This document shows positions 20,152 to 53,028 of a stretch of 64,000 bases of DNA, in pieces. The first letter of the stretch is position 1; every line of letters begins with the position of its first letter. The stretch is from IMG/VR virus record IMGVR_UViG_3300050014_000310, positions 32,001 to 96,000 of that record; one strand, written 5' to 3'. The position numbers were made by a program, and so were the translations under genes. The notes below the pieces were generated by a model that worked only from the letters and a program-made list of their open reading frames with translations, searched no databases and had not been told where the DNA came from. The DNA comes from a virus.

Positions 20152-20258
20152 AATAAATACACCCCCCGTAGTGTCTCCCGAATTTGTTTATGTGGGAAAC
20201 ATAGTCGGGAAACTATGCTTTCAGGCCGCGAACCCTATCCCACATATTAATTATAGCA
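20152..20258 (-). ncRNA. Conserved structured leader, copy 1 (with extended -10 TGCTATAAT)
   Basis: Shares GGGATAGGG..CCYGA, P1/P3 stems, pseudoknot and ACACTAC-SD with copies at 36738 and 52921. Confidence 0.7.
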
Positions 20259-20264
20259 TTTTTG

Positions 20265-20843
20265 TTAGCTAATTGATAATACTCCCTGATATATTTCGTG
20301 GACAAAATCGCCTCCTGTGCCCCAGAGCGAAAGCTCTTTTTGCCCAGCCGCACTAAAGAACAGCGTAGCGTTCGCTGTTAGCAAAGCCTGCAGCAGCGTG
20401 GGATACAGGCCGTTCCGCAAAGTTTCAACCGTTGCCACGACGCCTTCAGCCAGGGTTTCATATTCCTTCACGCCAGCGCTGTTCACGTTGTGATCAGGAA
20501 CCATCGCAAAAGTTGTGTTCATCGGGTTGTTGTTCAGCACGTCATTCCAGCCCTGCTCACCGATGATCCAGGCATCCAGGGGTAAACCATTCCCCCCCGT
20601 TGGTGGCCAGATGCCCAGGGCATTGATTATATCTGCTGCCGCGGCATGGATAGGTGCCCCGATCCCGGTAGAGGGAGCAGTCGCCGTTACCATCCTGCCG
20701 TTTCGTGCTGTTCTGGTTGTCGCCATTTTGTGTCTCTCCTCACTAAGCGCATATTCGATCGCATGCTCCGCTTTTTCAAACATTGAGCACCGGGGCAGGG
20801 ATTTCACTAATTGTAATGTTTCTCTTAATTTAGTTTCGCTCAT
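20265..20843 (-). CDS. Lysozyme-fold muramidase/endolysin-like protein (alternative start at 20726)
   Basis: W..GE.G...NNPMNTT...NSAGVKEY.TLAEGVVATVETLRNG.Y motif; lysis cassette. Confidence 0.65.
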   Translation of the reverse strand: MSETKLRETLQLVKSLPRCSMFEKAEHAIEYALSEERHKMATTRTARNGRMVTATAPSTGIGAPIHAAAADIINALGIWPPTGGNGLPLDAWIIGEQGWNDVLNNNPMNTTFAMVPDHNVNSAGVKEYETLAEGVVATVETLRNGLYPTLLQALLTANATLFFSAAGQKELSLWGTGGDFVHEIYQGVLSIS

Positions 20844-20989
20844 TAGGCTCCTGGCTGCCCTTCTCGTTGCTGTCTCTCATGGTTCTCACCTCGTTTCCAC
20901 TTCTTGAAGTCCTCGCAGAACCGTTGGCAACTCAGGCCAGGTAGCGGAGCAGGACAATGCTTGCAGGGGTCTTTCGCTGGGTCACGCAT
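20843..20989 (-). CDS. Small Cys-rich protein
   Basis: MRDPAKDPCKHC...C...C; overlapping starts and stops. Confidence 0.45.
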   Translation of the reverse strand: MRDPAKDPCKHCPAPLPGLSCQRFCEDFKKWKRGENHERQQREGQPGA

Positions 20990-21200
20990 CTTTCTTTGGC
21001 CACTCCCATTCGCCCGGCAGGCCACCGTGGTCACAATACTCCACGCCGCGAATTGCCTGATTTTCGACTGCTGGGCTATTGAACGCCCAGCCAGCAATCC
21101 TGCCGGACTTGTCAGGGTGAGATCCCGTTACAATCATTGGCTTCTTAACTCCATTCGGGTCGTTGAAAATCACAATCTCGCCAATTTCAGGCACTCTCAT
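20982..21200 (-). CDS. Small hypothetical protein
   Basis: 72 aa, coupled, GGAGG RBS. Confidence 0.65.
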   Translation of the reverse strand: MRVPEIGEIVIFNDPNGVKKPMIVTGSHPDKSGRIAGWAFNSPAVENQAIRGVEYCDHGGLPGEWEWPKKDA

Positions 21201-21571
21201 TTACCGTATTTCCTCCCTTCCAGATCATCGCTCAACTCGCCATCCCTCAGATACCCGTGCCAGCCCTCGGCTTCCCCTGCCCAGTGGTTGATCGACGGCG
21301 ACACTGTAATCCCAGGCGCCTCACCGGTCACTATCCAGCCGTGTCCATCCTGTGAGCCGCCGCAGACGCAGTCCACACAGAAATCGGTGCCCGTAGGCAG
21401 CACCACTATGATCGGCGGTCGCTTGCCCATGTGGTCCCGCTTGTACTCCAGGGAAAGATAATTTTTCAGATAGTAGGCAGCGTCTTCGCCTTCGACCAGC
21501 CAGGGAGCGAAAAACATATCCCCCGGCTTTTTGGCTGCGTTATGGTCAACTATGCGGCATGGTATCGGCAT
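21197..21571 (-). CDS. DUF6527-like protein
   Basis: GW.VTGEAP.ITVSPSI...WHGYLRDG motif. Confidence 0.55.
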   Translation of the reverse strand: MPIPCRIVDHNAAKKPGDMFFAPWLVEGEDAAYYLKNYLSLEYKRDHMGKRPPIIVVLPTGTDFCVDCVCGGSQDGHGWIVTGEAPGITVSPSINHWAGEAEGWHGYLRDGELSDDLEGRKYGK

Positions 21572-21663
21572 CAGCGATCAAGCCCCCTCAACGGTGTAAT
21601 TCCACATTTTGTCGCAGTGGGCGCAGTCTGGACAATCGCAGTAACCACAGATCCACACGTCCA

Positions 21664-21876
21664 TCAGCCATCATCCCCTTCCTTCTCAAGCGCTGTCCGT
21701 AGTCCCGCCGGGTTCCGGTGCTCCCTGAAGCACAGATAAATGGTGCGTATCCCGTATCTGCCGTCTGCCCGGGGTATTCGGACGCAGGCAAAGGTCTCCT
21801 TTTCGCATAGAGCACACGGGCCTAATTGGTATGCGCCCCCGTATTCCGCCTGTTCGATAATTTCCGCTATGGTCAT
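21664..21876 (-). CDS. Small zinc-ribbon protein
   Basis: CALC...C..H; GGAGG RBS. Confidence 0.55.
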   Translation of the reverse strand: MTIAEIIEQAEYGGAYQLGPCALCEKETFACVRIPRADGRYGIRTIYLCFREHRNPAGLRTALEKEGDDG

Positions 21877-21952
21877 AGGCCGCCTCCTCAGTAAATGAAG
21901 TTGCGCTAACCATTTTTTACCCGCAGCACGGGGATCACCCCCATTATTCGAA

Positions 21953-22357
21953 CTATTCTCCTGGCGCTTCCTCGGTCACGGTAACTTCAACCTCATTTGC
22001 TCCGACTTTGATATGTATCTGGCTAACCAACTCCCGGAGATCGTCGTGGGATTCACTGATCAATCTCAGTTCATTCATCGTGCAGTCGTGGGTCTCCTGG
22101 AGCAATGCCTGCTGAGCGGCGCCCTCTTTCTTGCTCACAAAGGCTAAAACCGGCAAAGCTGAAGCCTGAAATACAGCCGTAGAGAAGTACGTCACCCAGC
22201 CCACTAGGGACACTGGTCGCTGCCAGAAGAGGACGACGACGACCATGGACGTGATGATCCAAAAACAGGCCATCGTAGATAACGTATTTGCCAGGAGATC
22301 AGCGATTAGGTCATTGAATCTGGTGAGCATCACATTTCCCCTATTCGCTCGCATCAC
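21953..22357 (-). CDS. Membrane protein (DUF1003-like), possible holin accessory
   Basis: Two TM segments, FQASALPVL motif, coiled tail. Confidence 0.55.
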   Translation of the reverse strand: MMRANRGNVMLTRFNDLIADLLANTLSTMACFWIITSMVVVVLFWQRPVSLVGWVTYFSTAVFQASALPVLAFVSKKEGAAQQALLQETHDCTMNELRLISESHDDLRELVSQIHIKVGANEVEVTVTEEAPGE

Positions 22358-22359
22358 CC

Positions 22360-22749
22360 CTACATGTGAACCAAAAAGGCGACTGTCAATCCCACGCTCA
22401 GGGAAAACAGGGCCGCGATCAGCACAGTCACTGCCCAGGTCGGGCGCCCTGTCGAAATCTGATCAAGTTTGGTAAAGATCGTCTCGAATTTGGGATTGAG
22501 GTTGTCCATCCGGTCATTCATCGTTTTTTCAAGCTTGTCTGTTCGATCGTTCATTGCTTTCTCAAGCGACGTCTGCTGGCATTCGAGCGCGGCCGTTCTC
22601 GTCTGTAGTACAGCGATCGCTGTTGCGGAGTTTTCCTTGGCCAGCACCTGCGCCGTTGCCTGCGCTGCTTCCGCGACTGCCAGCGCCGTAGCTTTGGCGG
22701 CATCCGCTATCGCACGGGCAACAATTTCCTCGTGGGTCTCTTCAGGCAT
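22360..22749 (-). CDS. Coiled-coil protein with C-terminal TM (XhlA/holin-like)
   Basis: RPTWAVTVLIAALFSLSVGL C-terminal anchor; first gene after the tail fibres. Confidence 0.6.
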   Translation of the reverse strand: MPEETHEEIVARAIADAAKATALAVAEAAQATAQVLAKENSATAIAVLQTRTAALECQQTSLEKAMNDRTDKLEKTMNDRMDNLNPKFETIFTKLDQISTGRPTWAVTVLIAALFSLSVGLTVAFLVHM

Positions 22750-22831
22750 ATTCCACCGCCTCTCCTAATAAAAATGCCGCCTCGCTGGGGCGGGATCTGT
22801 CACCGTTCTATGATGACATCACCTCGCTTTA

Positions 22832-23884
22832 TTACCAAACAATGATGACCTCTCCGGCTGTGCCTGCCGCGCCAGAACCCGCTCCATAGTAGCCGCCGCC
22901 GCCGCCGCCATAGCCCGAGGCAGCGCTAAACCCCTGTCCGTTTACTCCCCCAGCGCCTAGCATGGAACCGCCGCCGCTCCCGCCCATCTGCACCGACGAG
23001 TAGTAGCCTGGCCCCCCAGGTGCGCTAATAGAGGCCAGAGTCGTGCCGCCGGTGTTGCTTACTGTGCCGGGCGTCCCGCCAGCACCCATGTAGGGATAGG
23101 TCACCCCGCTTGCGCCGCCGCCGCCGCCAGTGGCATAGATCGCTACACCGTTGCCTACTATTGACGATGCCCCGCCCGTGCCGCCAGCGGATGAGCCCGA
23201 TCCATAAGCGCCGCCAGCGCCTACGGCAATCGCGTACTGTTGCCCTGGAGACACAGCGATGGATGTCAGTATCGATCCACCGCCGCCGCCGCCGCCGCCG
23301 CCCGTAGCAGCCCCGCCGCCGCCGCCGCCGACAATAGTAGCATAGATCTCATTTACTCCAGCAGGGACAGTGAATGTGCCTCCGGAAGTAAACGCTTGTG
23401 CCCCATGCCCCTGATTCGCCACCGTGCCGGCTGTATAATATCCGGTACCCCCAGCAGAGCCTGGAGATAAAGACGATATGGATCCCTCAGCAGGTAACGA
23501 CGCTGTGATCGTGCCCCCAGGGTTATACCCGGCAGGAACAGTGACTTGACCACCCTGGGTGGAAATCGTCGCTGCCGGGCTGGGGTTGTCAGGCATAGTG
23601 CCGATCACTAATACGCCGTTGACAAAAGCAGTAGTGCTGTTGGCGCCGCCTACATTTCTGATATTGGCTGCTGTGGCCGTAGCGCCGGCCGTATCGACGA
23701 CTGAGGCTTTACCATTGACCCCAAAAATGTTGATCCCAGACTTGATATTCCCTGTCACCAGATCGGGATCACCCAAAATAGTCAATATGGCATCGTACCG
23801 GCTGGGCGGCAGAACAATATTGACCGTCCCGGGCGTGATCGTGCGGCCTTTAAAACCTAACTGAACGCCATCCCTGATCATCAC
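22832..23884 (-). CDS. Tail fibre protein with glycine-rich domain
   Basis: DPDLVTGNIKSGINIFGVNG collar motif; FTSGGTFTVPAGV...GGGGGG...GEVIIVW. Confidence 0.8.
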   Translation of the reverse strand: MMIRDGVQLGFKGRTITPGTVNIVLPPSRYDAILTILGDPDLVTGNIKSGINIFGVNGKASVVDTAGATATAANIRNVGGANSTTAFVNGVLVIGTMPDNPSPAATISTQGGQVTVPAGYNPGGTITASLPAEGSISSLSPGSAGGTGYYTAGTVANQGHGAQAFTSGGTFTVPAGVNEIYATIVGGGGGGAATGGGGGGGGGSILTSIAVSPGQQYAIAVGAGGAYGSGSSAGGTGGASSIVGNGVAIYATGGGGGASGVTYPYMGAGGTPGTVSNTGGTTLASISAPGGPGYYSSVQMGGSGGGSMLGAGGVNGQGFSAASGYGGGGGGYYGAGSGAAGTAGEVIIVW

Positions 23885-23892
23885 GTCACCCC

Positions 23893-24255
23893 CTATTGGA
23901 CTTCCACTCCGGAGATTGTCACCGTGATCGCATTTGCTGTCCCCTGCAACCCCTGGATCATGTCTGCCGCCGATAGCATGGTGTCGAGGCCGCTGATAAC
24001 CTTGAAGTCGTTGGCCGCTATAGTCAATGTTCCGATAAACTGATTAGCCGCGGCGACTCCGTTGATACCTAGTGTGACAATCGCCGCCAGCCCGGTAGTG
24101 TTGCACAAAATAATCTCTTTGACAACCGCCGTAGCAGAAGGAGTAGTCACGTTTGAGTCGTAAGCAGGCGCCGTGTAGAGAGTAGATCCCCCTGTGCTGG
24201 GCTGCCCAATGTACATCCTCCTGGGGCTTGCAATTGCCGAGTTTAAATATGCCAA
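23893..24255 (-). CDS. Tail-associated structural protein
   Basis: LYTAP...VKEIILCNTT...TISGVE beta-sandwich typical of tail tips. Confidence 0.7.
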   Translation of the reverse strand: MAYLNSAIASPRRMYIGQPSTGGSTLYTAPAYDSNVTTPSATAVVKEIILCNTTGLAAIVTLGINGVAAANQFIGTLTIAANDFKVISGLDTMLSAADMIQGLQGTANAITVTISGVEVQ

Positions 24256-24281
24256 GGGTGGTTCCTCCTATCTGATATGCT

Positions 24282-24581
24282 TTAGACCCAATATGTTGGG
24301 CTGGATATGCCCGCCGGTATGATCATGGATTGAATCGTCGCCGTCAGTGCCGCGGTTAAAGCAGATTCACTTGTATCCAGCGCAGATTGCCCCTGGGCGA
24401 CCATGATGTTGGCCAGAGCCTTAACCATGATTGTCGCCTGGTGGAACAGTTTATCGTGCATCTGCGGAGAAGCCATCCCGTTTGAAAGACCACCAGTAAC
24501 TGAAGAATCGGATTGATAGGTTGCATCGGATTCGGCGTTAATTAGGGATGGATTAAAAGTTACAAAATTGGTGCTGGCCAA
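24282..24581 (-). CDS. Tail fibre/baseplate adaptor (short)
   Basis: G.ASPQMHDKLFHQATIMVKALA motif typical of fibre N-termini. Confidence 0.65.
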   Translation of the reverse strand: MASTNFVTFNPSLINAESDATYQSDSSVTGGLSNGMASPQMHDKLFHQATIMVKALANIMVAQGQSALDTSESALTAALTATIQSMIIPAGISSPTYWV

Positions 24582-24625
24582 TCAAAGCCCTCCTTCCTAA
24601 ATAAAAAGCACCCCTTTCAGAGATC

Positions 24626-26320
24626 CTAAGCAGGCTCGACCCAATAGCCCTGCCCATAGCCTTGGAATACCGCGTTTTCTTCCCCGTAAGCGAACACAGG
24701 ATTAACCGGGTAATAGTAAAGATATTGAACTCCTTCCGGCCTGGGGATGATGAACCCATTGGAAATTAGATTCTGCTGCAGCACCGAGCTTAACCCGATC
24801 ACCAAAACATCGCACGTCATATTCTGGTTGTCCGTCAAAATCAAATAAACCGAATCAGGGAACAGCGAAGCAAATAGCGAGTAGATGCCTGGCGTAGTGC
24901 CGTCCCACATGTTCTGCGCTATCCTTGCCTTTAAAACAAGTTGGTAGGTTGCGTCATCCAGAATTGGAGAGGTGGAAACGTAATAACTGGTGCTGCCATC
25001 AAACGGAAGCAAGAGCGTGGTAGCTGAGTCTACGACCTGCGCTACTCCCCCATTCACATACGCCTGGTGCTCCACCAGCGTCCTCGCCCTAGATGAAATG
25101 CGGAGATCGTCGATGATGCCGTTTACTCCGCTAGATCCACCTGCGTTTAACATCATAGATGCTGCTAGTATCCCTGCTGGTTCTACATAAGCTATGTCAG
25201 AACCTATCTGGACTCCATTGACGCACAAACGCATTACAGATCCATTTCCTGCTATCATGATCGCGTATGATTGTCCAACATTAAAAATTTGATTACTATG
25301 TATAACGATTGTGGCTCCGCTTGAAGCTACCTGTAAGAATATCTGCTTATTATCTGCAAATAGCCAATAGTAGTCACCACTATCATTCTGTAAAAGCCAT
25401 AAACCTTGTGATGCAATTGACAGAGTATCAGTTGGTATATAGATCGTCTCTACCGCCCAACTTCCCGGCGTAAACACGCCTGCCGTGGGGATGGTCAGGG
25501 ATTCAGTTGCGCGGGTGGTACTTCCAAGCGTCCAACTTGTAGCGTAGGCTTTCTGCTCAAACTGGAGGCCATCAATCCAGAAAGTAATTGCCTGTGCAGT
25601 TGAGGTAACTACCCCTATCCACATGCTCGATCCTGCGGCTGTTGTTGTCAAAGAATACCTCGTCCATATAGAGGTAAGAGTAATTGTATTACTATATAAT
25701 GCTGGACTTGTAGTGATTAGATCTACTGTTCCTGATCCCCTTACCCATACCGAAAAGGTATATGTATTCCCTGATATAGAGGCAGGGTTTATCATTGCCC
25801 CCTCTCGGCTATATGTGCCAGGAGTTACCACTTTTAAGCTATGGGAACCCTGCCACGCATAAGTATTATCTTGGGTAAGCGTTTCATCCCCATGATTGCC
25901 GGTAAATCCTGTTGTTCCGTTCTCTATATTGGATTGGTTTGCCGTTAAGAGGTTGACCGTAGTCTCCTCGAACATGATCCCCTGATTAAACATAGCCGCA
26001 TCATACCGGGGCACACCTGACAGAACCTGTGCGCCAGTCAGGTAATCGTAGGCAACGGATGCCCTGGTAAATGTGCCCGAGACAGGCCCGAACGCGTCTG
26101 TGGGCTGAAAATTCACTACCCGTGAGACGCCTAGGATTTGTCCCAGAATATCAAGTTGCGCCCCCACGGCCTGGTCGATGTCGAAGGCATCATTCAGGCC
26201 TGCGGCGCAGGTTGTGGTGTCGTCAGCGTGGCTGAGCATTGAACTGACAGTGGCCATGAAGTTGGGCTTAGGGCGATGTTGACTGGTTATCAGATTGAGA
26301 TATTGGGTAATATTGGACAA
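24626..26320 (-). CDS. DUF2612-like baseplate wedge protein with inserted CBM-like and LamG domains
   Basis: FDIDQAVGAQLDILGQILGVSR and LDDATYQLVLKARIAQNMWDGT halves separated by ~370 aa containing IDGLQFEQ and GIIDDLRISSRART. Confidence 0.75.
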   Translation of the reverse strand: MSNITQYLNLITSQHRPKPNFMATVSSMLSHADDTTTCAAGLNDAFDIDQAVGAQLDILGQILGVSRVVNFQPTDAFGPVSGTFTRASVAYDYLTGAQVLSGVPRYDAAMFNQGIMFEETTVNLLTANQSNIENGTTGFTGNHGDETLTQDNTYAWQGSHSLKVVTPGTYSREGAMINPASISGNTYTFSVWVRGSGTVDLITTSPALYSNTITLTSIWTRYSLTTTAAGSSMWIGVVTSTAQAITFWIDGLQFEQKAYATSWTLGSTTRATESLTIPTAGVFTPGSWAVETIYIPTDTLSIASQGLWLLQNDSGDYYWLFADNKQIFLQVASSGATIVIHSNQIFNVGQSYAIMIAGNGSVMRLCVNGVQIGSDIAYVEPAGILAASMMLNAGGSSGVNGIIDDLRISSRARTLVEHQAYVNGGVAQVVDSATTLLLPFDGSTSYYVSTSPILDDATYQLVLKARIAQNMWDGTTPGIYSLFASLFPDSVYLILTDNQNMTCDVLVIGLSSVLQQNLISNGFIIPRPEGVQYLYYYPVNPVFAYGEENAVFQGYGQGYWVEPA

Positions 26321-26332
26321 ATGAAATCACCC

Positions 26333-27763
26333 CTATGTGTAAATAAACTGATCCGCGCTACTCACCGGCGATGTCCCGGCCACGTTAATCACCGTCACAT
26401 CGACCGTCCCCGCTGAAACAGCCGGCGAGACGCAGGTGATCTGCGTATCGGAAACCACCACCACAGAAGTCGCGCTGGCGCTCCCAAACTTAACCGCAGA
26501 AGCCCCGGTAAACCCGGCCCCTGTCAAAGTTACCGCGGTCCCCCCGGTATGCGATCCCGTAACAGGTGACACCCCAGTTACCATCGGGGTAATTATGATA
26601 TACAAAAGGTTCCCCTGGGTGACCTGATTGAAGGCCATTACGATCACCGCAGTCCCCTGGGATCCCCCATGCAGGGCATCAGTAACCGTGCTTACCGCGA
26701 ACAAGGGACTGGTAATCGACCCACACTGACCCATCGCCGTCGCCCATATTGCGGAGTTCTGCAGACTCTTTCCAATGGCGATACTGTTCAGATAGTTGTA
26801 AACAGCGGTCCGGATATTCGCCAGCGTCTGCGTCGTATACCCGGTTAACTGCGTGATCGGGATCACCACATCGATGGCCTCGTAGGTCGGCAGGAAGAAA
26901 TAGATCGTGGTTGTCTGCCCGTACTGGTCTATGATGCCAAATGAAGAAGTCCCCCACGTCCCGCAACCCGGCCCCTTATTGTCGCATATAGCCTGGGCAA
27001 TATTTGCTGGTGTAGCAGTGCCGTCCACAACCGCATAGATACAGTGTGAAGGCGCTCCGTTGGCATCTGCTGAAGATGTGAAATTCTCGTAGACAACGAA
27101 GCGGGTTACGCCGATTACTGAGGCAATGGCAGCTTTCGTCTGGTCTAGCAAAGTCGTGTTGCTCTCTGCCGTACTGATTGCTTGCCTAGCTTTCAACGCT
27201 GAATCAGATTCCTGCGATTGCCCTATCTGGGATGCGGAAACGGCGTTAGGATTTGTCACGCTAGACCACCCATAGGTTGGAGTGGCCATGATTGAAATTG
27301 CCCCCGGATTGGCTGCGATGGGGCCCAAGGTGGTGCAGGTAGCCGTGACGGTCACTGTCCCCCCGGTACCGATTACCGTAGCGGGGATTGACCACTGGTA
27401 GCCGGATGTGTCCTGGGCAATGCAGTTGGTCAGCGGGGTTCCTGTGATGCCGGCGCAAATCACTGGGCAGATTGAGTAGGTGGATGATTCCCTGGCGATG
27501 CCGTTTAGCTTGATGATGGAGTCCAGGCCAGAGCCTACGGCGGTGCCGGGGCCGCGGGAGTTGTAAACCTGGACCAGGAGTTGATTGGTATCGTTGATCT
27601 TTGAGGCAAAGGATGAAAGCATTTGGTAGTCCTGGCTTGAGGGTGCCAAGTAGATGTCCTGGCCGTAAATACTCTGCATGTCGGAGACAAGATCGGCGAT
27701 GATATCGGCGAATAGGGGAATGTGGCACCCCGTGGAATCGATGCTAGGCGGTACGTAGCTCAT
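26333..27763 (-). CDS. Baseplate J-like protein with C-terminal IPT/TIG domain
   Basis: AVGSGLDSIIKLNGIAR, ESDSALKARQ; C-terminal PMVTGVSPVTG..GGTAVTLTG; start at 27763 behind AAAGGAGGTGA. Confidence 0.88.
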   Translation of the reverse strand: MSYVPPSIDSTGCHIPLFADIIADLVSDMQSIYGQDIYLAPSSQDYQMLSSFASKINDTNQLLVQVYNSRGPGTAVGSGLDSIIKLNGIARESSTYSICPVICAGITGTPLTNCIAQDTSGYQWSIPATVIGTGGTVTVTATCTTLGPIAANPGAISIMATPTYGWSSVTNPNAVSASQIGQSQESDSALKARQAISTAESNTTLLDQTKAAIASVIGVTRFVVYENFTSSADANGAPSHCIYAVVDGTATPANIAQAICDNKGPGCGTWGTSSFGIIDQYGQTTTIYFFLPTYEAIDVVIPITQLTGYTTQTLANIRTAVYNYLNSIAIGKSLQNSAIWATAMGQCGSITSPLFAVSTVTDALHGGSQGTAVIVMAFNQVTQGNLLYIIITPMVTGVSPVTGSHTGGTAVTLTGAGFTGASAVKFGSASATSVVVVSDTQITCVSPAVSAGTVDVTVINVAGTSPVSSADQFIYT

Positions 27764-27828
27764 ATGGATCACCTCCTTTAGCGGCAAGGAAGCCCACGCC
27801 TTCAGCCGTGGGATGAATTGCCGTATCC

Positions 27829-27857
27829 TTGCCGTATTCTTTCGTATGTGATATAAT
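27829..27857 (+). promoter_or_regulatory. tnpB promoter TTGCCG-17-TATAAT (probably leaderless mRNA)
   Basis: ATG lies 6 nt after the -10 with no SD. Confidence 0.6.
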
Positions 27858-27863
27858 TAACCT

Positions 27864-29009: not shown

Positions 29010-29016
29010 CCTCCCA

Positions 29017-43178: not shown

Positions 43179-43187
43179 TGGCTCCGC

Positions 43188-43234: not shown

Positions 43235-43261
43235 GCATTATTTCATAGCATGCCTCATAGT

Positions 43262-44332: not shown

Positions 44333-44467
44333 TTCTTATTCTTGCTCCTTTCGATTAGCGGTTTGGGTAAAACTGACCACAAATAAAAAAACCGCCATAC
44401 AAGTGGCGATCCCGGTCAGTGCAATTGATCATCATGCCTAATGTTTCCTAAGGCGTTTCTGCCCAGA

Positions 44468-45037
44468 TTAAGCAGCAACCTGCGTCAACAGCGTGATCTC
44501 AGTGATGCCATTACCGTCCACCTTGCCGGTAGTGAACCGGGCATTGGTCAACTGAATTGAGGTGCCACCGGCAGGAGTAGCTGTGGCGACGATGGACCCC
44601 ACAGGACTGACGGTGCCGGCCACAGTGACGATGTAGACCAGGCCATTGGCGGTCGGCGTGCCCTCGGCGACAAACACGGTGCAACTGCCAACCTGCAGCG
44701 CATCACAGGGAGGCCCAAGCGGCTCAAATTGGCCGCTACCGCCTGCATTTTGCCCGATGCCGTAGGTCAGCGACTGCTTGACCTCAGACACGGCGATCCC
44801 GCCGAAGTTAGCCAGCACGGCAGACGATACGCCGACACCGGATGCGCCCCACAGGGAATAGGAGTTGTCGGCGTTGACGACCACCGCAGATCCAAACGGA
44901 ATTACGGGCTGCGTCTGCACGCCGCTACCGTTCAGGATCGATTTGACAAATCTTGAATTGATCTTGTTGAGCGGGTTGCGGGATACTTTGCCCGCATAAC
45001 CCAGGTTGAGATCCATTCCAATTGCTGTTCCAGACAT
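44468..45037 (-). CDS. Capsid cement/decoration protein
   Basis: GTAIG..LNLGYAG.VSR...IPFG; between protease and capsid. Confidence 0.75.
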   Translation of the reverse strand: MSGTAIGMDLNLGYAGKVSRNPLNKINSRFVKSILNGSGVQTQPVIPFGSAVVVNADNSYSLWGASGVGVSSAVLANFGGIAVSEVKQSLTYGIGQNAGGSGQFEPLGPPCDALQVGSCTVFVAEGTPTANGLVYIVTVAGTVSPVGSIVATATPAGGTSIQLTNARFTTGKVDGNGITEITLLTQVAA

Positions 45038-45092
45038 TTGTTTGTCCTCCTTTGGTTTGGGTTGACGTTGTGCTCAATTTAACTGATATTGC

Positions 45093-46463: not shown

Positions 46464-46505
46464 TGTTCACCACCTCGAATCAGAACAAAATTTCACGACA
46501 AAATG

Positions 46506-47231
46506 CTACATACCGGCAAGCCAATTCACTTTCAGTTTAGCGCCGGCTGCCGAGAACTCCAGGTTGTACGATGATCCGGCCATGATCGACAGATCCGATG
46601 TGAAGCTCGGGACATTGGCTGCCATGCTTGCCGCCAGTTTGATTGGGATGCCATCCTGCTTCAGCCACAAATCCCCTGCGGTATCGGACGTCACCATCAG
46701 GCGGGACCGCGTATTCATCGGGGAGACCCAGGGATTCTGCGCCCCTGCGGCTGTCTGCAGGATGCCCACGTCTGTGCCCTGGGCGGCAACGGCCCCTGCG
46801 GTCAGCTTCAGGGTAGACACAGCGATGTCCGTCGAAGTGCTTAATACCGTGGCGCCTGGCGTCACTACGACCTGGGATGCGCTGCTCTTGAGAGCGGATG
46901 TGATGACGTACTTGGAACTGGTGTAGGCGCAGGTAGCCGTCTTGTAGCTGGCCGGGACTCCGGTTAAAGCCTGCATCACGGACTGAATCTCACCGGCGAT
47001 GGCCGCTCCGGTGGCATCGGTGTTGGTGAGGACGATGTTTCGCGGGGTCGGGTCCCCGTCAAGCTGGATGTTGAAGTTCGGACCAGTAATGCCCGACAAG
47101 GTGGTGGCTGGGCTGGCCGCGGAAGTCAGAGTTCCAGCGGTAGCTGACCCTGAAGCAGTACCGACGACGAAGGTGCCATTGGCAATGGGAAAACCAACTT
47201 GCCTTACAATTTGAAGATTAGCGTCTGGCAA
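46506..47231 (-). CDS. Structural protein containing a sheath-like domain
   Basis: A/T/G-rich; FNIQLDGD...TGAAIAGEIQ...YVITS resembles the sheath middle domain. Confidence 0.65.
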   Translation of the reverse strand: MPDANLQIVRQVGFPIANGTFVVGTASGSATAGTLTSAASPATTLSGITGPNFNIQLDGDPTPRNIVLTNTDATGAAIAGEIQSVMQALTGVPASYKTATCAYTSSKYVITSALKSSASQVVVTPGATVLSTSTDIAVSTLKLTAGAVAAQGTDVGILQTAAGAQNPWVSPMNTRSRLMVTSDTAGDLWLKQDGIPIKLAASMAANVPSFTSDLSIMAGSSYNLEFSAAGAKLKVNWLAGM

Positions 47232-47350
47232 AGCATTTAGCCTCCTTTGATTGGAAATTGATGTTGAAAAAACGCCCCACGAAAGGAGGCGCTGTGAAAC
47301 CTAGGGGGGGAAGATTGAATTATGAAACCTATAGGAAAAGCGACAAGGCC

Positions 47351-47557
47351 TTACTTGTTCGAGATCGGATGATTCAGGATCTCTTCCATGCCGGATAGGT
47401 GACCAGCATTGTTGAATGCATCATGGCTTGTCTGCCGGGCATTTTCCTCAGCGGCGGCCTTTGCTTGATCGGGCGGGTGGCCGCTCTTGATCATTTCGGC
47501 TATGTTGTGGGAAATAACGGATTGACCGCTTCCTTCTTCTAGGGGAATCTTCATCAC
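47351..47557 (-). CDS. Small conserved phage protein (MPL..G.S..VIS.NI.E...G.P..QA type)
   Basis: Motif recognition; AAGGGGGTG RBS. Confidence 0.65.
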   Translation of the reverse strand: MMKIPLEEGSGQSVISHNIAEMIKSGHPPDQAKAAAEENARQTSHDAFNNAGHLSGMEEILNHPISNK

Positions 47558-47648
47558 CCCCTTTCGCTGGGCATGAAAAAACCGCCCGGAGGCGGCGGTC
47601 GATTCACTTAATTTTCTTGTGAAGCTCTCGCCCTTCTAAAGCGCGAGA

Positions 47649-47804
47649 TCAGGGCGTATCAGGCGGATCATTTTGCGGCGGTAAATCTACCACCTCAACC
47701 CCATAGTAGATATAATCACCCTCGTCAACCGGAGCTAACTGAATTACCATCTGAGTTTCCTGATCAAAATCAGGAATCGGAGCGTACACGTTTGGCCCTG
47801 GCAT
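47649..47804 (-). CDS. Small acidic protein (51 aa, MPGPNVYAPIPDFDQETQ...)
   Basis: Read manually; AAGGTGGTGA RBS. Confidence 0.5.
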   Translation of the reverse strand: MPGPNVYAPIPDFDQETQMVIQLAPVDEGDYIYYGVEVVDLPPQNDPPDTP

Positions 47805-47892
47805 GTCTACTCACCACCTTTTTAGCTATTGATTTTTTCTGTATTTTCCTCTATAATTGGAGTATAGTAAAAATTATATGAGGTGATTTTAA

Positions 47893-48528
47893 ATGGATAT
47901 GGCTTTTTGCTCCCACTGCAATACAGCGCATCCTGTGCCGCCCATAGGAACCCAAAATAAATATTGGCGTTGGCAAAGAAATAAATCCCTAAAAAACGGT
48001 GGTTATTTTGTATGCCAAAAATGGTATAAAAGTTATCAGCTAAACTATAAAAGAACAAAAGATGGATGGATAAGAATAACATATCTTACTCAAAGGAAAT
48101 CTTCCAAAGCCCGTAAACATCCTATGCCAAGTTATACATTTGAAGAGTTTAAGCAATGGGCATTTTCCCAATCTGAATTTGATACATTATTTGATGGCTG
48201 GATGAGCAACAATTACATTCAAGATTTAAGACCATCTGTAGATAGAATTAGTGATGATAAACCATATACCCTGGACAACATTCAGTTAATGACATTTAAA
48301 GAAAACCGCTTAGCTGGAGTGCGTGGGAGCAAAGCCCACAAAGCTTATGATAGAGTAAACTCCCTTCAAGGTCTTAAGGTGTATCAATATACACTGGACA
48401 ACAAACTTATTGCTTCTTACAAAAGTAGTCATGTTGCTTCTAAAATTACGGGGGTAGATTCTTCATCAATTAACAAATGTTGCAACGGCAAGCTTAAAAC
48501 TGCGGGTGGTTTCAAGTGGTGTCACTAA
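47893..48528 (+). CDS. HNH-like endonuclease with NUMOD1 domain, antisense to the late operon
   Basis: PSVDRISDDKPYTLDNIQL..FKEN; VYQYTLD...INKCCNGKLKTAGGFKW; own TTGATT-17-TATAAT promoter; AT-rich. Confidence 0.8.
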   Translation: MDMAFCSHCNTAHPVPPIGTQNKYWRWQRNKSLKNGGYFVCQKWYKSYQLNYKRTKDGWIRITYLTQRKSSKARKHPMPSYTFEEFKQWAFSQSEFDTLFDGWMSNNYIQDLRPSVDRISDDKPYTLDNIQLMTFKENRLAGVRGSKAHKAYDRVNSLQGLKVYQYTLDNKLIASYKSSHVASKITGVDSSSINKCCNGKLKTAGGFKWCH

Positions 48529-48574
48529 TCAGCGGTGAGGAATATGGGGCGCAAAATCTATTTGTTTACGCTAA

Positions 48575-48685
48575 TAAGAGTCTGCCTGCCGATGTTGACG
48601 TTGGTGTTCCCTGACGAATTGTTCAGATTCCAGTACGAGAAACCTGCATTCGACCTGTTGTTCCAGTTACCACTGAGTAAGGCAA
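48575..48685 (-). repeat. DGR template repeat (TR)
   Basis: 111 nt, non-coding, AAC-rich; aligns gap-free to the VR with 27 of 28 mismatches at TR adenines; enclosed by an ATATGGGGTGC/GCGCCCCATAT stem. Confidence 0.95.
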
Positions 48686-48708
48686 GCCGCACCCCATATC
48701 CCTTGATA

Positions 48709-48728
48709 TTGGGGGCTAACGCCCCCAA
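48709..48728 (-). promoter_or_regulatory. DGR target-recognition hairpin downstream of VR/IMH
   Basis: TTGGGGGC-GTTA-GCCCCCAA, 8-bp stem with 4-nt loop. Confidence 0.8.
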
Positions 48729-48734
48729 ACCCCC

Positions 48735-50330
48735 CTAAAGAGCTTTTCTAAGAAGCCGCCCGCCGACGTAGACGACGGTGAACCCCGACGAACCGTACAG
48801 ACCCCAGCACGAGAAACCCGCACCCGACCCGACGCCCCAGTCACCACCGAGCAAGGCAATATACTGGCCGCTCGAATTCTGGTAATAGTAGTCCGAGTAG
48901 TACGTCGAACTGCTACCACCTCCTGTCACCGGGAATTCTGCTTCTGGGTTGGCAGGATCGTATCCCATCGCTGAAGCCCAGTCATTAATGCCGTAGTTGG
49001 CATACGCAAGCTTTAGGTATGGGCTAGCAAACACGTTGCTGGCATACGATGCCGCGTTTTGGCATATCCATGCCTGATCATTGTTGACGTTTAGCCCGTC
49101 TACAAACTGCCAGATATCACCCCAGGGCGATTCAATTCCACGATAACAGCACGGTTGCAATCCACTTAAATTACTAACAGGGCTGCCACTCGATGCTGCT
49201 ATGCCAGACGAGAATCCGTTTTTCCAGCCAACATTGTACAGCATGTTGCCGATAGCGATATTGACCGCCGCACCATCGAAAACGATTGCCTTATCCCCAG
49301 CATCATACGTATTAATAGCGGTGATTGTACGCCCGTAGCATACTTGATTTCCGCCCTGGGTTGTGCCGATACCGATAGGCTGACCTACCGCATATAACGC
49401 AGCGGTGGCGTTGGCGACGACTATCTGATTGCCATTTGTCGTGGCGAAGGTCGCCAGATGCGTTGCAGTGTATTGACCGTTTGCCCAGCCCTGCATAATC
49501 GCCTGACTATTCAGCGTGGCAAACTCGATGTAAAACAATGTTTGCAGCATGTCTACAACGTGTATATCTAGTTGCTGATACCCATTTGTCCCGGCAACCC
49601 CAGTATTGTTGGCCTTAGCAAATGTACGGAAGTTGACGATAGTATCGTTGATATACGGAAAACCGCCGGAGACAGACTGCAATTTGCCACCGCTGACTGA
49701 GGCTTTGTATTTGCCCACGTCGATGTAGGGCAATTCAGTGCCGGTAGTGAAGTTCCAAAAACATTGAGGCAGGTAATAGCCAGAATAATTGGTTTTCGAG
49801 ACCTGCCAGGTTTTATAGCCTACGCCATCAGTTTTCTTGATATAGAACTTGGGGATGCGGATAAATGTATTTCCATGGGTATCGGTTACCTGCGTAATTT
49901 CTCCAAATATCGGGAGGCTATCAAAGTTATTTGTAGGGGTAGATCCATCCACGCCAGCATTTGCGACTAGCCCGACCGCCGAATCGGTTCTCGTCATGGT
50001 TGGATTCGATCCCTTATTCCAGGACACGCCCCAGACACGCGGATCTGTAAACGTGAACTGATCCGCTAAACCAGTCGCGCTGGTAGTGATTACAGTAATG
50101 TCTACTTCCGTACTGGCTGTGCCCGCTGGTGCTACCGCGGTAATCGAAGTTGACGAATTGACTGTAAATGATGTTGCAGGAGTAGTACCAAAATAAACAT
50201 TCTCTACCCCGACAAAACCTGTTCCAGCGATAACGACTGATGTTCCTCCAGTAGAAATGCCACCTTCCGGACTTATGCCCGTCACCACCTGGGGAGCACT
50301 TGCTAATTTTGTGCCGCCGAAGAAGCCCAT
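48735..50330 (-). CDS. DGR target protein: N-terminal IPT/TIG domain, C-terminal CLec-type variable domain
   Basis: YRGIESPWGDIWQFVDG...YYSDYYY...LLGGDW...AG..C......GGRL; VR at the 3' end. Confidence 0.9.
   Translation of the reverse strand: MGFFGGTKLASAPQVVTGISPEGGISTGGTSVVIAGTGFVGVENVYFGTTPATSFTVNSSTSITAVAPAGTASTEVDITVITTSATGLADQFTFTDPRVWGVSWNKGSNPTMTRTDSAVGLVANAGVDGSTPTNNFDSLPIFGEITQVTDTHGNTFIRIPKFYIKKTDGVGYKTWQVSKTNYSGYYLPQCFWNFTTGTELPYIDVGKYKASVSGGKLQSVSGGFPYINDTIVNFRTFAKANNTGVAGTNGYQQLDIHVVDMLQTLFYIEFATLNSQAIMQGWANGQYTATHLATFATTNGNQIVVANATAALYAVGQPIGIGTTQGGNQVCYGRTITAINTYDAGDKAIVFDGAAVNIAIGNMLYNVGWKNGFSSGIAASSGSPVSNLSGLQPCCYRGIESPWGDIWQFVDGLNVNNDQAWICQNAASYASNVFASPYLKLAYANYGINDWASAMGYDPANPEAEFPVTGGGSSSTYYSDYYYQNSSGQYIALLGGDWGVGSGAGFSCWGLYGSSGFTVVYVGGRLLRKAL
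48749..48859 (-). repeat. DGR variable repeat (VR)
   Basis: Last codons of the target gene; adenine-specific divergence from the TR. Confidence 0.95.
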
Positions 50331-50334
50331 ATGG

Positions 50335-51150
50335 TTAGCCCTCCTTCGCTGTGAAGGTGTGCCCGGTAGTAGCAGCAATGACGGAAATTAACTCGGTTTC
50401 GACGTAATTTCCATCCATGACAAATCCATTTCCGGGGGTCAATTCTATTGACGGTTCTCCGACAACCGCGCCTGTTCCGAACCTGAACCAGAGCGATTCC
50501 GTAGCCGCCGATGGATTCTGTATCAGGAAATAGTTTCGGTTAGAATTGGCTGCTGCTAATTGCTGAGCCGCGCCCCCTGTTGTGATAGTTCCGCTTCTGT
50601 CGGTGAGGGCTCCTTTTACTGCTATACTCCCAGAGATCGCGACAGGCAGCCCCGAGATCTTCCCATCCGTATCAACGGCCCCGTTCGCCGCTCCAACCTT
50701 CAACGCCGCCGCCAGATCACTATACCCCGACGTTGCAGTCCCTGCCGTGATCCGTATTTTCGACCCCGGCCCAACCGCACCCGAAGTCGTGACATACACC
50801 CCGCCTACGTAGGCAAACGTAATGCCCGCATAGGTGACGCCACCAACCCTCTGGATCGCCGATTGAACCGCAGCCGCTATCAGCAAACCAGTGGTCAATC
50901 CGGCCACGTTGACAACGACATTATGAACATTCCCGTTAACTGCATCGGCATCGGCAGAAATGTTGAAGTTGACGATCCCGGTCAGAGCCGAAACGTTGGT
51001 GCTCGGTGAAGAAGCGCCGGTCTCATAGCCTGTAGAGCAGATCGATTCCAGGAAGTTGGCGATGTTAAATGTGCCGCCGTATTCGTCGAGAATGCGGCCG
51101 GTATTCGGGGGTATATTATTGACTGTGGGGTTTGGCATGGGGATAACCAC
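50335..51150 (-). CDS. Structural protein with sheath-like domain and C-terminal beta-sandwich
   Basis: GASSPSTNVS...GGVYVTTS...DLAAALKVGAANGAVDTDG closely matches the sheath middle domain. Confidence 0.7.
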   Translation of the reverse strand: MVIPMPNPTVNNIPPNTGRILDEYGGTFNIANFLESICSTGYETGASSPSTNVSALTGIVNFNISADADAVNGNVHNVVVNVAGLTTGLLIAAAVQSAIQRVGGVTYAGITFAYVGGVYVTTSGAVGPGSKIRITAGTATSGYSDLAAALKVGAANGAVDTDGKISGLPVAISGSIAVKGALTDRSGTITTGGAAQQLAAANSNRNYFLIQNPSAATESLWFRFGTGAVVGEPSIELTPGNGFVMDGNYVETELISVIAATTGHTFTAKEG

Positions 51151-51298
51151 CTCTCCTGTGCTTGTATTTGGCGTTCCAGCCCTTTTAACAAACTGTACCT
51201 AATGTTGAGGATATCATTTAAGGATAATGACAACCGACAACACCTCGATTAAGCTACTTGATGCGCGGATAATTTCAGGAAACCAGCCAGCATACAAA

Positions 51299-52159
51299 TT
51301 ACGCTGCAAGTCTTAAAAATTCGCTCTTTGCCATCATCATTACTCGATTGTTGTGCCAAACCCTATGCGGGAACACAATCCGGTTAATGTCAATAATTGG
51401 CTCGGCATAGCACCTACAATTCCATATGTTTCCAGCATGGTACGGCGCAGGAATCGTCTTGGGTGGCTTCCCCATCAGGGTTTCAGGCCGGGGTGGTTCA
51501 TTCCAGAAAACGATCACATCATCCATCTTCTTGTGGCCTTCTCTGACCCTCTCGTCTTCACTTGTCCGCCAGATATAGGCACTGATGCCCATATCCTCGG
51601 CCCGAGCCTGCGTCAGGCTTGCTCCGGTTTTGCTGCACTCTGTCCGAGCGATCAACCGCGCCTTCGCCCTACTATTAGCCGGAAACATCTTCACGATATC
51701 CCCTGCGATGTCCTCAGCCCTTCTGCCTGCAATCGTTTCTTTCCCAACATACTCGGTCACATGGCCCGCGATATCCAGGGGCAACGTTTTTATCAGTTCA
51801 GCATTACGCAAAATCTGGAAATTAAACACGCCACCAACTGATCCGTTCAACTCATGCCGTAAGGCCTCGTAGATTAAACGTCCCTTCGATGATTCCCTCG
51901 CGGCTTCCCGCCAACTGTGAGCGCCATCGTGCAGGAGCATCGTCACCATGTTTTTTGCTACCTGGTCGGCGAAATCGTTGACTCGGTAAAGTGAGGTGAA
52001 GGATCTCAGGTTTCGTACCATCTGGAGCGGATCTTTTTCGTCTTTGATGATGCCGTATAGGGCATTGACGAGTTTTTGAAGCTGGGCGAGAAAGTTCTTT
52101 TCGATTCTGGGTTTTGAACTCCAAAAGTCGTATTTGCGGAGTGCGGCATCCATTGGCAT
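51299..52159 (-). CDS. Head morphogenesis protein (SPP1 gp7/Mu F-like)
   Basis: ARLIARTE...YIWRTSEDERVREGH...HAG.IWNCRCYAEP. Confidence 0.9.
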   Translation of the reverse strand: MPMDAALRKYDFWSSKPRIEKNFLAQLQKLVNALYGIIKDEKDPLQMVRNLRSFTSLYRVNDFADQVAKNMVTMLLHDGAHSWREAARESSKGRLIYEALRHELNGSVGGVFNFQILRNAELIKTLPLDIAGHVTEYVGKETIAGRRAEDIAGDIVKMFPANSRAKARLIARTECSKTGASLTQARAEDMGISAYIWRTSEDERVREGHKKMDDVIVFWNEPPRPETLMGKPPKTIPAPYHAGNIWNCRCYAEPIIDINRIVFPHRVWHNNRVMMMAKSEFLRLAA

Positions 52160-52242
52160 AGGGGATCACCTTGATTCTTGTCTTTATTCACTTCAAATAA
52201 AAAAGCACCCCGAAGGATGCCCTATTTTACTTATTATTTTAA

Positions 52243-52920
52243 TTATATATCATTAAGTTTTGCGAATTCACCAAAGAGTTCTGTCGCTGCCTTGTTGTAT
52301 GCAAGAGCGGCTTCTTCTTCTGTCTCATAATAGCCTAAACTTCGATTCCTACCATCATGCTTTATATATGCGTTGTATCGCTTCTTTCCTCTTTTATAGC
52401 AATAAACACCCTTATATTTACTAATGGTATTTTTGCGTTTATTAGTATTATGAAGATTTTCAGCATTTGTGCAAATTCTTAAGTTTTCTCTTCTATTATC
52501 ACAAGTATCATGGTTAATGTGATCAACGTACTGACCTTCTTGTGCATCGGTAATTATCCTGTGCATTAATTTGATCTTTCTATTAAAACGCGTAGATGGA
52601 TAACCTTGAGAACCAATACACCATGTATAATTCTTTATGAATTCAAAATCAATTTTATCAAAATAAAACTTTTTACCTTTTTGCGTGATGCCTACCATAC
52701 ACCCATCTTGTTCATAAAAAATGTTTTTTGATAAATTGCATCCTTCGGTACCACACGTTGTGGTCGATCCACTCATCAAATTAAATGATAGGGGATGCGT
52801 TTCCATCCCACAATCACAAATACATTTCCATCTAAACCTACCTCTGGATCGCTTTTCACTAGGTTCAACAACAGTCAATTTCCCAAATCTTTGCCCAGTT
52901 AAATCGACAAACTTACCCAT
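52243..52920 (-). CDS. HNH endonuclease with AP2 domain
   Basis: MHRII...VDHINHDTCDNRRENLRIC; SKYKGV...LGYYETEEEAALAYNKAA. Confidence 0.9.
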   Translation of the reverse strand: MGKFVDLTGQRFGKLTVVEPSEKRSRGRFRWKCICDCGMETHPLSFNLMSGSTTTCGTEGCNLSKNIFYEQDGCMVGITQKGKKFYFDKIDFEFIKNYTWCIGSQGYPSTRFNRKIKLMHRIITDAQEGQYVDHINHDTCDNRRENLRICTNAENLHNTNKRKNTISKYKGVYCYKRGKKRYNAYIKHDGRNRSLGYYETEEEAALAYNKAATELFGEFAKLNDI

Positions 52921-53028
52921 AACAATAGCACCTCCTGTAGTGTTTTCCTGATTTTTATTTGTGGGAAAGGCGGTCAGGAAACCGCCCTTGTCAGGTGTAC
53001 AGCCCTATCCCACAATGTAATTATACCA
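52921..53028 (-). ncRNA. Conserved structured leader, copy 3 (with extended -10 TGGTATAAT)
   Basis: TTGTGGGATAGGG..CCTGACAAGGGCGGT-ttcctg-ACCGCCTTTCCCACAA...TCAGGAAAACACTACAGGAGGTG. Confidence 0.7.

Follow-up and report, generated by a model that had tools for sequence, protein, structure and literature searches.

The window analyzed here is a 64,000-nucleotide (nt) stretch of viral DNA, bases 32001-96000 of the 128,693-base uncultured virus record IMGVR_UViG_3300050014_000310 (CheckV completeness 92%). It contains three copies of an RNA leader, each of which occupies the interval separating a structural gene from an endonuclease gene. The long open reading frames (ORFs) of the window lie nearly all on the minus strand, as do the three repeats. 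There are exactly three copies in the whole record: the core pattern is found three times on the reverse strand and not at all on the forward strand, a reversed-pattern control gives none, and a covariance model likewise finds three. An original prediction had described these repeats as a pseudoknotted leader of endonuclease genes, and all the elements that it listed are present in the three copies, on the minus strand.

Fold of the leader and pairing of its P3 loop

The minimum-free-energy fold of each window copy yields four helices, P1 to P4. Helices P1, P2 and P3 form a three-way junction, followed by a short linker, a site termed S4, and then the small hairpin P4, the loop and 3′ arm of which carry the Shine-Dalgarno sequence. 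The coordinates are given in Table 1. P1 is formed by TGTGGGA and TCCCACA in copies 1 and 3, and by TGCGGGA and TCCCGCA in copy 2, so that a U-A pair is exchanged for C-G. The sequence GGGATAGGG is identical in the three copies, and P2 ends with CCYGA(C)AAG. The joints of the junction are conserved, with UA(G) between P1 and P2, GA(N)AAG between P2 and P3, and U or UU between P3 and P1. The sequences of the P3 stem are unlike between the copies and pairing is kept in all three, while the loop of P3 (L3) is complementary to a site 8-16 nt past P1. A final hairpin of the form ACACT...GGTGT encloses the Shine-Dalgarno sequence. The stability of the fold relative to shuffled sequences is modest (z = −1.48, −0.57 and −1.97 for copies 1, 2 and 3), and the structural case therefore rests on covariation with relatives rather than on energy.

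Table 1. Coordinates of the three leaders, their promoter-like sites and the genes that they precede (window positions)
Feature	Position	Strand	Basis or remark
Copy 1 promoter-like site	TTATCA 20279-20274; TG-extended TATAAT TGCTATAAT 20258-20250	minus	Consensus scan; 18-nt spacer
Copy 1 leader RNA	20246-20149	minus	Sequence and predicted fold
Copy 1 P1	20246-20238 / 20197-20189	minus	Predicted fold
Copy 1 P2 hairpin, loop TTCGCGG	20237-20222	minus	Predicted fold
Copy 1 P3 hairpin	20219-20198; L3 about 20212-20205	minus	Predicted fold
Copy 1 decoy site S4	20181-20175	minus	L3 complementarity
Copy 1 P4	20174-20170 / 20163-20159	minus	Loop and 3′ arm carry Shine-Dalgarno
Copy 1 second L3-complementary site	20168-20163	minus	In P4 loop/3′ arm
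Copy 1 start codon TTG	20151-20149	minus	
GIY-YIG/NUMOD3 homing endonuclease, 263 amino acids (aa)	19360-20151	minus	Pfam NUMOD3 9.7e-15, GIY-YIG 1.8e-06
Copy 2 leader RNA	36839-36735	minus	Sequence and predicted fold
Copy 2 P1	36839-36831 / 36792-36784	minus	Predicted fold
Copy 2 P2, loop CGGCCA	36828-36817	minus	Predicted fold
Copy 2 P3	36813-36793; L3 36807-36799	minus	Predicted fold
Copy 2 S4, followed by 9-nt insert	36773-36768	minus	L3 complementarity
Copy 2 P4	36758-36754 / 36748-36744	minus	Predicted fold
Copy 2 Shine-Dalgarno / second L3 site	36752-36748	minus	
Copy 2 start codon ATG	36737-36735	minus	
HNH endonuclease, 214 aa	36093-36737	minus	Pfam none; PHROGs phrog_374, E 3.7e-68
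Copy 3 extended −10 TGGTATAAT	53028-53020	minus	Overlaps portal gene end; no −35 match
Copy 3 leader RNA	53015-52918	minus	Sequence and predicted fold
Copy 3 P1	53015-53008 / 52966-52959	minus	Predicted fold
Copy 3 P2, loop CTGTACA	53007-52992	minus	Predicted fold; loop includes 6-nt palindrome TGTACA
Copy 3 P3	52988-52967; L3 about 52981-52974	minus	Predicted fold
Copy 3 S4	52951-52944	minus	L3 complementarity
Copy 3 P4	52942-52939 / 52932-52929	minus	Predicted fold
Copy 3 Shine-Dalgarno / second L3 site	52937-52931	minus	
Copy 3 start codon ATG	52920-52918	minus	
HNH (+ AP2-like) endonuclease, 225 aa	52243-52920	minus	Pfam HNH_3 5.7e-08; PHROGs phrog_99, E 1.1e-42

Viral relatives were gathered with two sequence patterns built on the conserved core, which gave at least 119 and 58 stretches. 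The pattern matches comprised at least 180 instances, at least 158 of them distinct and at least 139 with a P3 of at least 4 base pairs (bp). A loose first pattern scan had given mostly noise, and only 6 of its 115 foreign loci met the P1 check. The patterns set the inner part of P1 and the junction letters; the outer part of P1, together with P2, P3 and P4, lies outside them. One hundred loci were given to the model searches, and 39 were omitted by eye as near-duplicates (mostly of one actinophage type) or as doubtful. Searching the 100 viral loci with a covariance model of the three window copies gave 103 matches. In the resulting alignment 93.8% of the cells expected to pair do so, compared with 68.7% in shuffles, and 16 of the 17 pairs have changed on both sides. 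The alignment has a covariation score of 0.634; shuffled alignments give 0.173 (0 of 500 reach the observed score), and values of 0.045-0.115 are obtained when the partners are slid by one to three columns, a control that retains the relatedness of the sequences.

P4 was then added to the model and the sequences were realigned, giving 109 copies. P4 is paired in 77.2%, and all six of its pairs have changed on both sides. The score for the whole structure including P4 is 0.570, compared with 0.163 shuffled and 0.061-0.122 slid. A crude search for the P4 hairpin separated the copies only weakly from mononucleotide shuffles (mean best stem 5.4 versus 4.4), and the covariance-model realignment is the better test of this helix. 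G-U pairs are frequent, occurring in 29 of the 109 copies at one pair of P2 and in 53 at the base of P3, which fits an RNA of this strand. The repeats are true copies of a widespread folded RNA leader with compensatory changes. The predicted structured RNA is thus upheld in a larger alignment, where P1, P2, P3 and P4 all covary among 103-109 viral relatives.

Two sites match the P3 loop by complementarity: a decoy (S4) just past P1, and the ribosome-binding site in P4. The sequences CCCG, CCG and CCUG in L3 of copies 1, 2 and 3 are matched at S4 by CGGG, CGG and CAGG respectively. The same change in L3 is matched again in the P4 loop at the Shine-Dalgarno sequence, by CGGGGG, CGGAG and CAGGAGG. 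This second site, overlapping the Shine-Dalgarno sequence, was absent from the original description, and what had been given there as an optional A in an ACACTAC(A)GG motif is covariation of the second site. The P4 stem has only 4-5 bp in the window copies and encloses part of the Shine-Dalgarno sequence; the stronger masking of that sequence would come from the long-range pairing with L3.

Both pairings were compared with a control in which loops and tails were permuted between copies. The longest Watson-Crick match of L3 with the proximal tail has a mean length of 4.19, compared with 2.33 on permutation (maximum 2.74 of 500; n = 88). With the last 22 nt before the start codon the mean is 4.62, compared with 3.18 (maximum 3.48 of 500; n = 88). 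Duplex energies calculated for 156 copies behave in the same way, being −7.41 kcal/mol for L3:S4 against −3.77 kcal/mol permuted, and −7.94 kcal/mol for the distal site against −5.68 kcal/mol, and in neither case do any of 100 permutations reach the observed value. The predicted pseudoknot between the P3 loop and a downstream site, with its compensatory change, therefore exceeds the permuted controls. The proximal site is the stronger in 71 of these copies and the distal site in 57, with 28 ties, and the two pairings of L3 are about equal in energy across the family. In the window the energies of L3:S4 and L3:Shine-Dalgarno are −11.3 and −8.6 kcal/mol for copy 1, −7.7 and −6.0 kcal/mol for copy 2, and −10.1 and −8.1 kcal/mol for copy 3.

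The distal site has a median span of about −13 to −6 from the start codon, the position of a Shine-Dalgarno sequence, and usually falls within the P4 loop and 3′ arm. In every locus examined the leader is directly 5′ of the start codon and on the coding strand. Several phages bear two or three copies, and both the P2 loop and L3 vary from copy to copy within one phage, so that each leader fits its own gene.

Kinship with int-alpA, downstream genes and promoter-like sites

The original prediction did not recognize the motif as a named family, and an Rfam scan of the whole window at the gathering threshold gives no matches. The int-alpA family (RF02996) is absent from the matches up to E = 10, both for copy 1 alone (221 nt), where the best Rfam match is mir-3116 at E = 1.9, and for all three copies within 9.3 kb. 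Judged by score against the RF02996 gathering threshold of 35.8 bits, the window copies fail to qualify as members. A pattern for one subclass of P2 located 83 stretches in bacterial and archaeal species genomes. From the record titles the source genomes include Desulfobacterota, Planctomycetota, Nitrospirota, Nitrospinota, Alpha- and Gammaproteobacteria, and further Bacillota, Bacteroidota, Spirochaetota, Verrucomicrobiota and candidate-phyla bacteria. A model (R2) built exclusively from 103 window-type viral copies matches all 83 bacterial loci at 34.7-70.1 bits, and RF02996 passes at the same coordinates in 7 of 16 tested bacterial loci with 38.8-52.8 Rfam bits. Among phage loci RF02996 passes at 1 of 19 copies in 14 loci. 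One viral contig (L121) carries both a window-type copy (2586-2681) and an Rfam-positive int-alpA copy (6057-6150); RF02996 passes there at 6078-6149, and a further model (R3) also matches at that place. This contig is a natural bridge between the two branches.

The int-alpA and window branches have in common the three-way junction, UA after P1, a pyrimidine followed by U just ahead of the P1 3′ arm, and a 3′ tail complementary to the P3 loop. In our own reading of the Rfam consensus, a tail ending ...AaGG faces a P3 loop containing ...CCuU.... The joint before P3 is GAAAAG in int-alpA, and its counterpart in the window family is GA(N)AAG. There are also clear differences. The inner end of P1 reads GGGA/UCCC in the window branch. 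Its P2 has 3 bp and an often palindromic loop of 5-8 nt, where int-alpA has the form GNCC-GACG-GGNC, and it has the added P4 with a second L3 site on the Shine-Dalgarno sequence, outside the Rfam model. The genes of the window branch are mostly homing endonucleases rather than int or alpA, and the window copies themselves precede GIY-YIG and HNH genes, not the integrase and AlpA-type genes implied by the family name. Because R2 and RF02996 hit the same loci, and because the junction, its joining letters and the complementarity of the tail are the same, the window copies are on sequence grounds a divergent, Rfam-invisible and large branch of int-alpA. Although the Rfam model misses the window copies, it passes at kin bacterial loci, and the view that the motif belongs to no named family is not supported.

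Rfam lists int-alpA with the type 'Gene; sRNA'. A literature search on int-alpA and RF02996 found no functional study, the name occurring only in a list of predicted small RNAs or in gene order and the accession not at all, and no account of this leader came up in a search combining phage, endonuclease and RNA structure. The family reportedly comes from a 2017 survey of 224 candidate RNAs, the main text of which does not mention it.

The genes that follow the leader were examined in the viral set, where 92 of the 103 hits have a callable ORF and the 86 proteins of at least 90 aa were scanned. The commonest Pfam domains are HNH_3 (12), HNH (8), GIY-YIG (7), AP2 (6), NUMOD3 (4) and HNH_5 (4), and the PHROGs matches are mostly to HNH and homing-endonuclease families. 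On BLAST clustering, 45 of the 86 proteins fall into three nuclease clusters; the genes of copies 2 and 3 share one cluster. The AP2 match of the copy 3 gene is under the Pfam cut-off, at 22.4 versus 33.3 bits. The nucleases come from unrelated families, including HNH, GIY-YIG, Endonuclease VII and others. Non-nuclease partners also occur: tail assembly chaperones of high-G+C phages, a pair each of major head proteins, replication initiators and glycosyltransferases, and many singletons. The commonest non-nuclease partner is a seven-member family of small proteins of 106-158 aa with a shared N-terminus (L131, L140, L193, L208, L251, L255 and L272), and its sole scanned member, L251, has no PHROG match. 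In the bacterial set there were 85 copies and 64 ORFs of at least 90 aa, 63 of which were scanned (one being an exact duplicate). No Pfam family exceeds 3 of the 63; those found include HNH_3, one phage integrase, one sigma-54 activator and one HTH_17.

The leader is therefore not specific to nucleases, and about half of the phage copies precede homing endonucleases. The predicted association with nuclease genes stands for the 45 viral proteins in nuclease clusters, but many leaders lie before other genes, such as those for major head, tail-chaperone, replication-initiation, glycosyltransferase, integrase and unannotated proteins, and exclusive specificity is lost. Given the diversity of both partners and phyla, the RNA must work with universal machinery and not with one nuclease. 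In Psychrobacter phage pOW20-A and Aeromonas phage 62AhydR11PP the leader is placed in the structural operon before a hypothetical gene. In pOW20-A (L376, NC_020841.1) the leader occupies 2501-2589, and the annotated coding sequence PSYG_00055 starts at 2527, inside the fold; the layout of the leader points to the ATG at 2587-2589 as the start. A 4-kb viral contig (L085) additionally has a RAGATH-18 RNA (RF03064, 69.5 bits) at 2344-2415, 2 kb downstream of the leader.

The TGnTATAAT elements noted originally upstream of two of the copies are both present, but only copy 1 has a full sigma-70-like site. A consensus scan found no full sigma-70 site on the minus strand for copy 3, and no promoter-like site for copy 2. 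The −10 elements of copies 1 and 3 end about 7 nt before P1. An extended −10 (TGnTAnnWT) occurs just upstream of P1 in 19 of 107 viral copies, compared with 3 in a control window 40 nt further upstream. Twelve of the 19 are at one fixed distance from P1, which would place the start of the transcript on the first bases of P1. In two freshwater metagenome runs, contigs match the window in the region 52917-53032 only, at ~87% identity, and both flanks are unlike. The match spans the start codon to the −10 region. Leader and promoter thus appear to behave as a module found with other genes and other neighbors. Of the portable cassette of promoter, RNA and nuclease that had been proposed, the portability of promoter plus leader is retained, and the tie to one nuclease is not. 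A contig joint skipping 52211-53005 was not used, its shorter side being only 21 letters.

Probable translational control and alternative explanations

We consider it probable, at roughly 60%, that the leader exerts a cis-acting, two-state control of translation initiation. Of the roles that had been offered for this RNA, a translational switch is the best reading, based upon the complementarity of L3 to two sites and the hairpin that holds the Shine-Dalgarno sequence. It builds on what is observed: the fold and its covariation, the match of L3 to both sites, and the placement of the second of these over the ribosome-binding site. L3 would be an anti-Shine-Dalgarno sequence tailored to its own gene, borne on a rigid three-way junction. 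With L3 in a pseudoknot with the decoy S4, only the weak P4 would cover the ribosome-binding site, while pairing of L3 with the near-identical site in the P4 loop would mask it. Masking would then lower translation in cis, and S4 would relieve it. The decoy would be transcribed before the ribosome-binding site, and the partition between two nearly iso-energetic states would set the level of downstream translation. What shifts the balance could be nothing at all (a fixed attenuator), the order of folding, dimerization through the P2 loop, or a ligand or factor at the junction.

A number of observations weigh against this interpretation. In the three window copies the pairing with the decoy is stronger than that with the Shine-Dalgarno sequence by 1.7-2.7 kcal/mol, so on these crude energies the ribosome-binding site would be free in the ground state, and 'repressor' may be the wrong word for the window leaders. 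Nuclease-gene leaders (n = 44) and leaders of other phage genes (n = 38) do not differ in the balance of the two pairings (Mann-Whitney p = 0.73), whereas a simple rheostat that keeps toxic nucleases low would predict a difference. In two loci the leader lies before major-head genes (L185, 3898-4020, and L211, 6437-6552) and has its second site in a P4-like loop, with the real Shine-Dalgarno sequence 25-40 nt downstream of it; pairing there would not mask the real site. The second site departs from a canonical Shine-Dalgarno sequence in the two named Gammaproteobacteria phages, pOW20-A and 62AhydR11PP. The alignments have their own limits. The search patterns fix the GGGATAGGG...TTCCC core, so that its conservation is partly by selection, the alignments were fitted to the structure of the model, ~30% of the rows are gapped at the P4 columns in the 109-copy alignment, and the sequences are related, so that the shuffle counts are not probabilities.

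In L185 and L211 the junction and S4 are kept, as is a P4-like hairpin bearing the second site. These leaders could have stayed behind when a nuclease gene was lost, or the fold may have a role other than masking.

The leader might instead be a signal-gated switch, in which a metabolite, ion or universal host factor bound at the junction stabilizes L3:S4, so that the ribosome-binding site is freed. Such a switch would have the same two-state core, with a specific trigger on top. Conservation in the family is highest in the junction letters, which also occur in the int-alpA consensus, and two nearly iso-energetic states are what a switch needs, while the spread over many phyla means that any partner must be universal. 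Yet conservation covers only some ten letters of the junction, a small number for an aptamer judged by riboswitch classes, the downstream genes (nucleases, capsid, integrase, many unknown) have no common metabolic theme, and no Rfam riboswitch family matches the window copies at E up to 10. A dedicated trigger is therefore unlikely in our view. It is also rather improbable that the fold is an expression insulator or 5′ stabilizer without regulation, protecting the mRNA and presenting the Shine-Dalgarno sequence in a defined context, as would be useful to genes landing in foreign operons. The decoy pairing favored in the window copies, the leaders before highly expressed genes such as that for the major head protein, the module seen with different flanks, and the extended −10 at a fixed distance that would make P1 the 5′ end (in the 19 of 107 phage copies that have it) all agree with this. 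It leaves unexplained, however, the complementarity of L3 to the Shine-Dalgarno sequence that is kept through complete sequence turnover, and most copies have no promoter-like site of their own.

The remaining possibilities carry far less weight. A trans-acting small RNA whose L3 pairs with targets elsewhere would agree with the Rfam type label and with the 71-position Rfam model that ends before the gene, but in one copy after another L3 finds two matches within its own tail, the leader runs directly up to a start codon of its own strand, and the window copies have no terminator-like site past the junction; we find this very unlikely. Known small ribozymes are common in intergenic positions of phage operons, and a self-cleaving ribozyme releasing the mRNA of the gene from an operon transcript might have such a small conserved core with a multi-helix junction and pseudoknot between phage operon genes. 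No Rfam ribozyme family, whether hammerhead, twister, pistol, hatchet or another, matches at E up to 10, however, and no data point to a cleavage site, which makes self-cleavage highly improbable. The suggestion that the RNA is a scaffold or operator bound by the encoded nuclease for autoregulation draws on the three nuclease clusters that hold 45 of the 86 downstream phage proteins, but the nucleases belong to unrelated families, many leaders precede non-nucleases, and one conserved core cannot be the specific site of all these nucleases. It is strongly disfavored, to the point of being scarcely credible. An exoribonuclease-resistant RNA (xrRNA) was considered for its likeness in topology, with a three-way junction, pairing of L3 with the tail and a following hairpin, and was dropped because the match to the tick-borne flavivirus xrRNA is only E = 4.4; moreover, no 5′-3′ exoribonuclease is known to us for some of the phyla and phages in which the family occurs, such as Ewingella, Psychrobacter and Aeromonas. 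A two-site target for CsrA, with GGA in S4 and in the P4 loop, was rejected since many copies have no GGA in S4.

The P2 loop provides a further feature, also absent from the original description. A palindrome of at least 6 nt is present in 31 of 61 P2 loops of 6-8 nt, compared with 4.8 in within-loop shuffles (maximum 12 in 1000), and in 20 of the 45 distinct loops of that length, compared with 3.1 shuffled (maximum 9 in 1000). Typical loops consist of a single base and then CUGCAG, CCAUGG, CACGUG, UGUACA or similar, and the palindromes lie in columns 15-23 of alignment A7. The P2 loop of copy 3 holds UGUACA, and those of copies 1 and 2 hold the 4-nt palindromes CGCG and GGCC. Other P2 classes, with UAGCU or UCGCU pentaloops or the GACG loops of int-alpA type, are palindromic partly or not at all. 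Each copy within one phage has a different P2 palindrome. A 6-base palindrome cannot pair within its own 7-nt loop, and the sequences suggest RNA-RNA kissing dimers. On this basis a kissing-loop homodimer of mRNA leaders might set L3 on the decoy or on the ribosome-binding site, tying translation to the concentration of the transcript. That is doubtful; if it were true, there would be a self-counting mRNA leader across many bacterial phyla.

Translational riboswitch platforms employ Shine-Dalgarno, anti-Shine-Dalgarno and anti-anti-Shine-Dalgarno elements, and SAM-II and preQ1 are pseudoknot riboswitches. Like these, the leader has three pairing partners at the Shine-Dalgarno sequence that exclude one another, and a hairpin loop that forms a pseudoknot with the 3′ tail. 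The pseudoknot strand in the riboswitches is usually the Shine-Dalgarno sequence itself, whereas in the leader it is a decoy copy, and unlike the riboswitch classes no ligand is implied.

Homing endonucleases and genes of mobile elements need to be expressed inside foreign operons without harm to the carrier, and to our knowledge the only documented means for such control are gene-by-gene hairpins in the T-even phages. If our interpretation is correct the leader would be a portable control device that brings along an anti-Shine-Dalgarno loop and a decoy, and often a promoter too. All 83 of the fetched bacterial loci, which come from many phyla, have the leader, and well over 100 viral contigs carry it. 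The catalogued orphan RNA int-alpA, most of whose phage branch is missed by the Rfam model, would also gain a function.

According to a review of the T-even phages (PMC2988022), hairpins at the ribosome-binding site occur for I-TevI, I-TevII, I-TevIII, segB and Aeh1 mobE, and they are relieved by a late promoter inside the structure that gives late transcripts without the 5′ arm. The leader shares with them an RNA structure at the ribosome-binding site of free-standing or intron-borne nuclease genes in phage operons, and both would limit translation of the nuclease. The T-even structures as described there are simple, gene-specific hairpins that are not mutually homologous (PMC2988022). The leader, by contrast, carries its anti-Shine-Dalgarno sequence on a conserved three-way junction with a built-in decoy, and its family extends over many phyla and many non-nuclease genes. 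Unlike the T-even hairpins with their internal promoter, the leader has its −10, where one is present, upstream of P1, so that the whole fold would be transcribed.

The phage and its gene neighborhood

In the window, copy 1 lies between a 192-aa ORF on one side and the GIY-YIG/NUMOD3 gene on the other. Copy 2 is flanked by a KPP10_Orf10-type structural gene and the gene for the 214-aa HNH endonuclease. Copy 3 is placed between the portal gene and the HNH_3 gene, after which there is a Mu-F-like head gene. BLAST comparison with a phage collection gave no matches for a 5-kb stretch of the window or for copy 3, and the portal protein has distant relatives only, the best with 41% identity. Judging from these comparisons, this is a phage with no close cultured relative.

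The GIY-YIG gene is followed by a 490-aa gene (17800-19272, minus strand) with Big_2 and copper amine oxidase N-terminal domains. This pairing of domains is typical of cell-wall-associated proteins of Bacillota, and hints at a host in that phylum.

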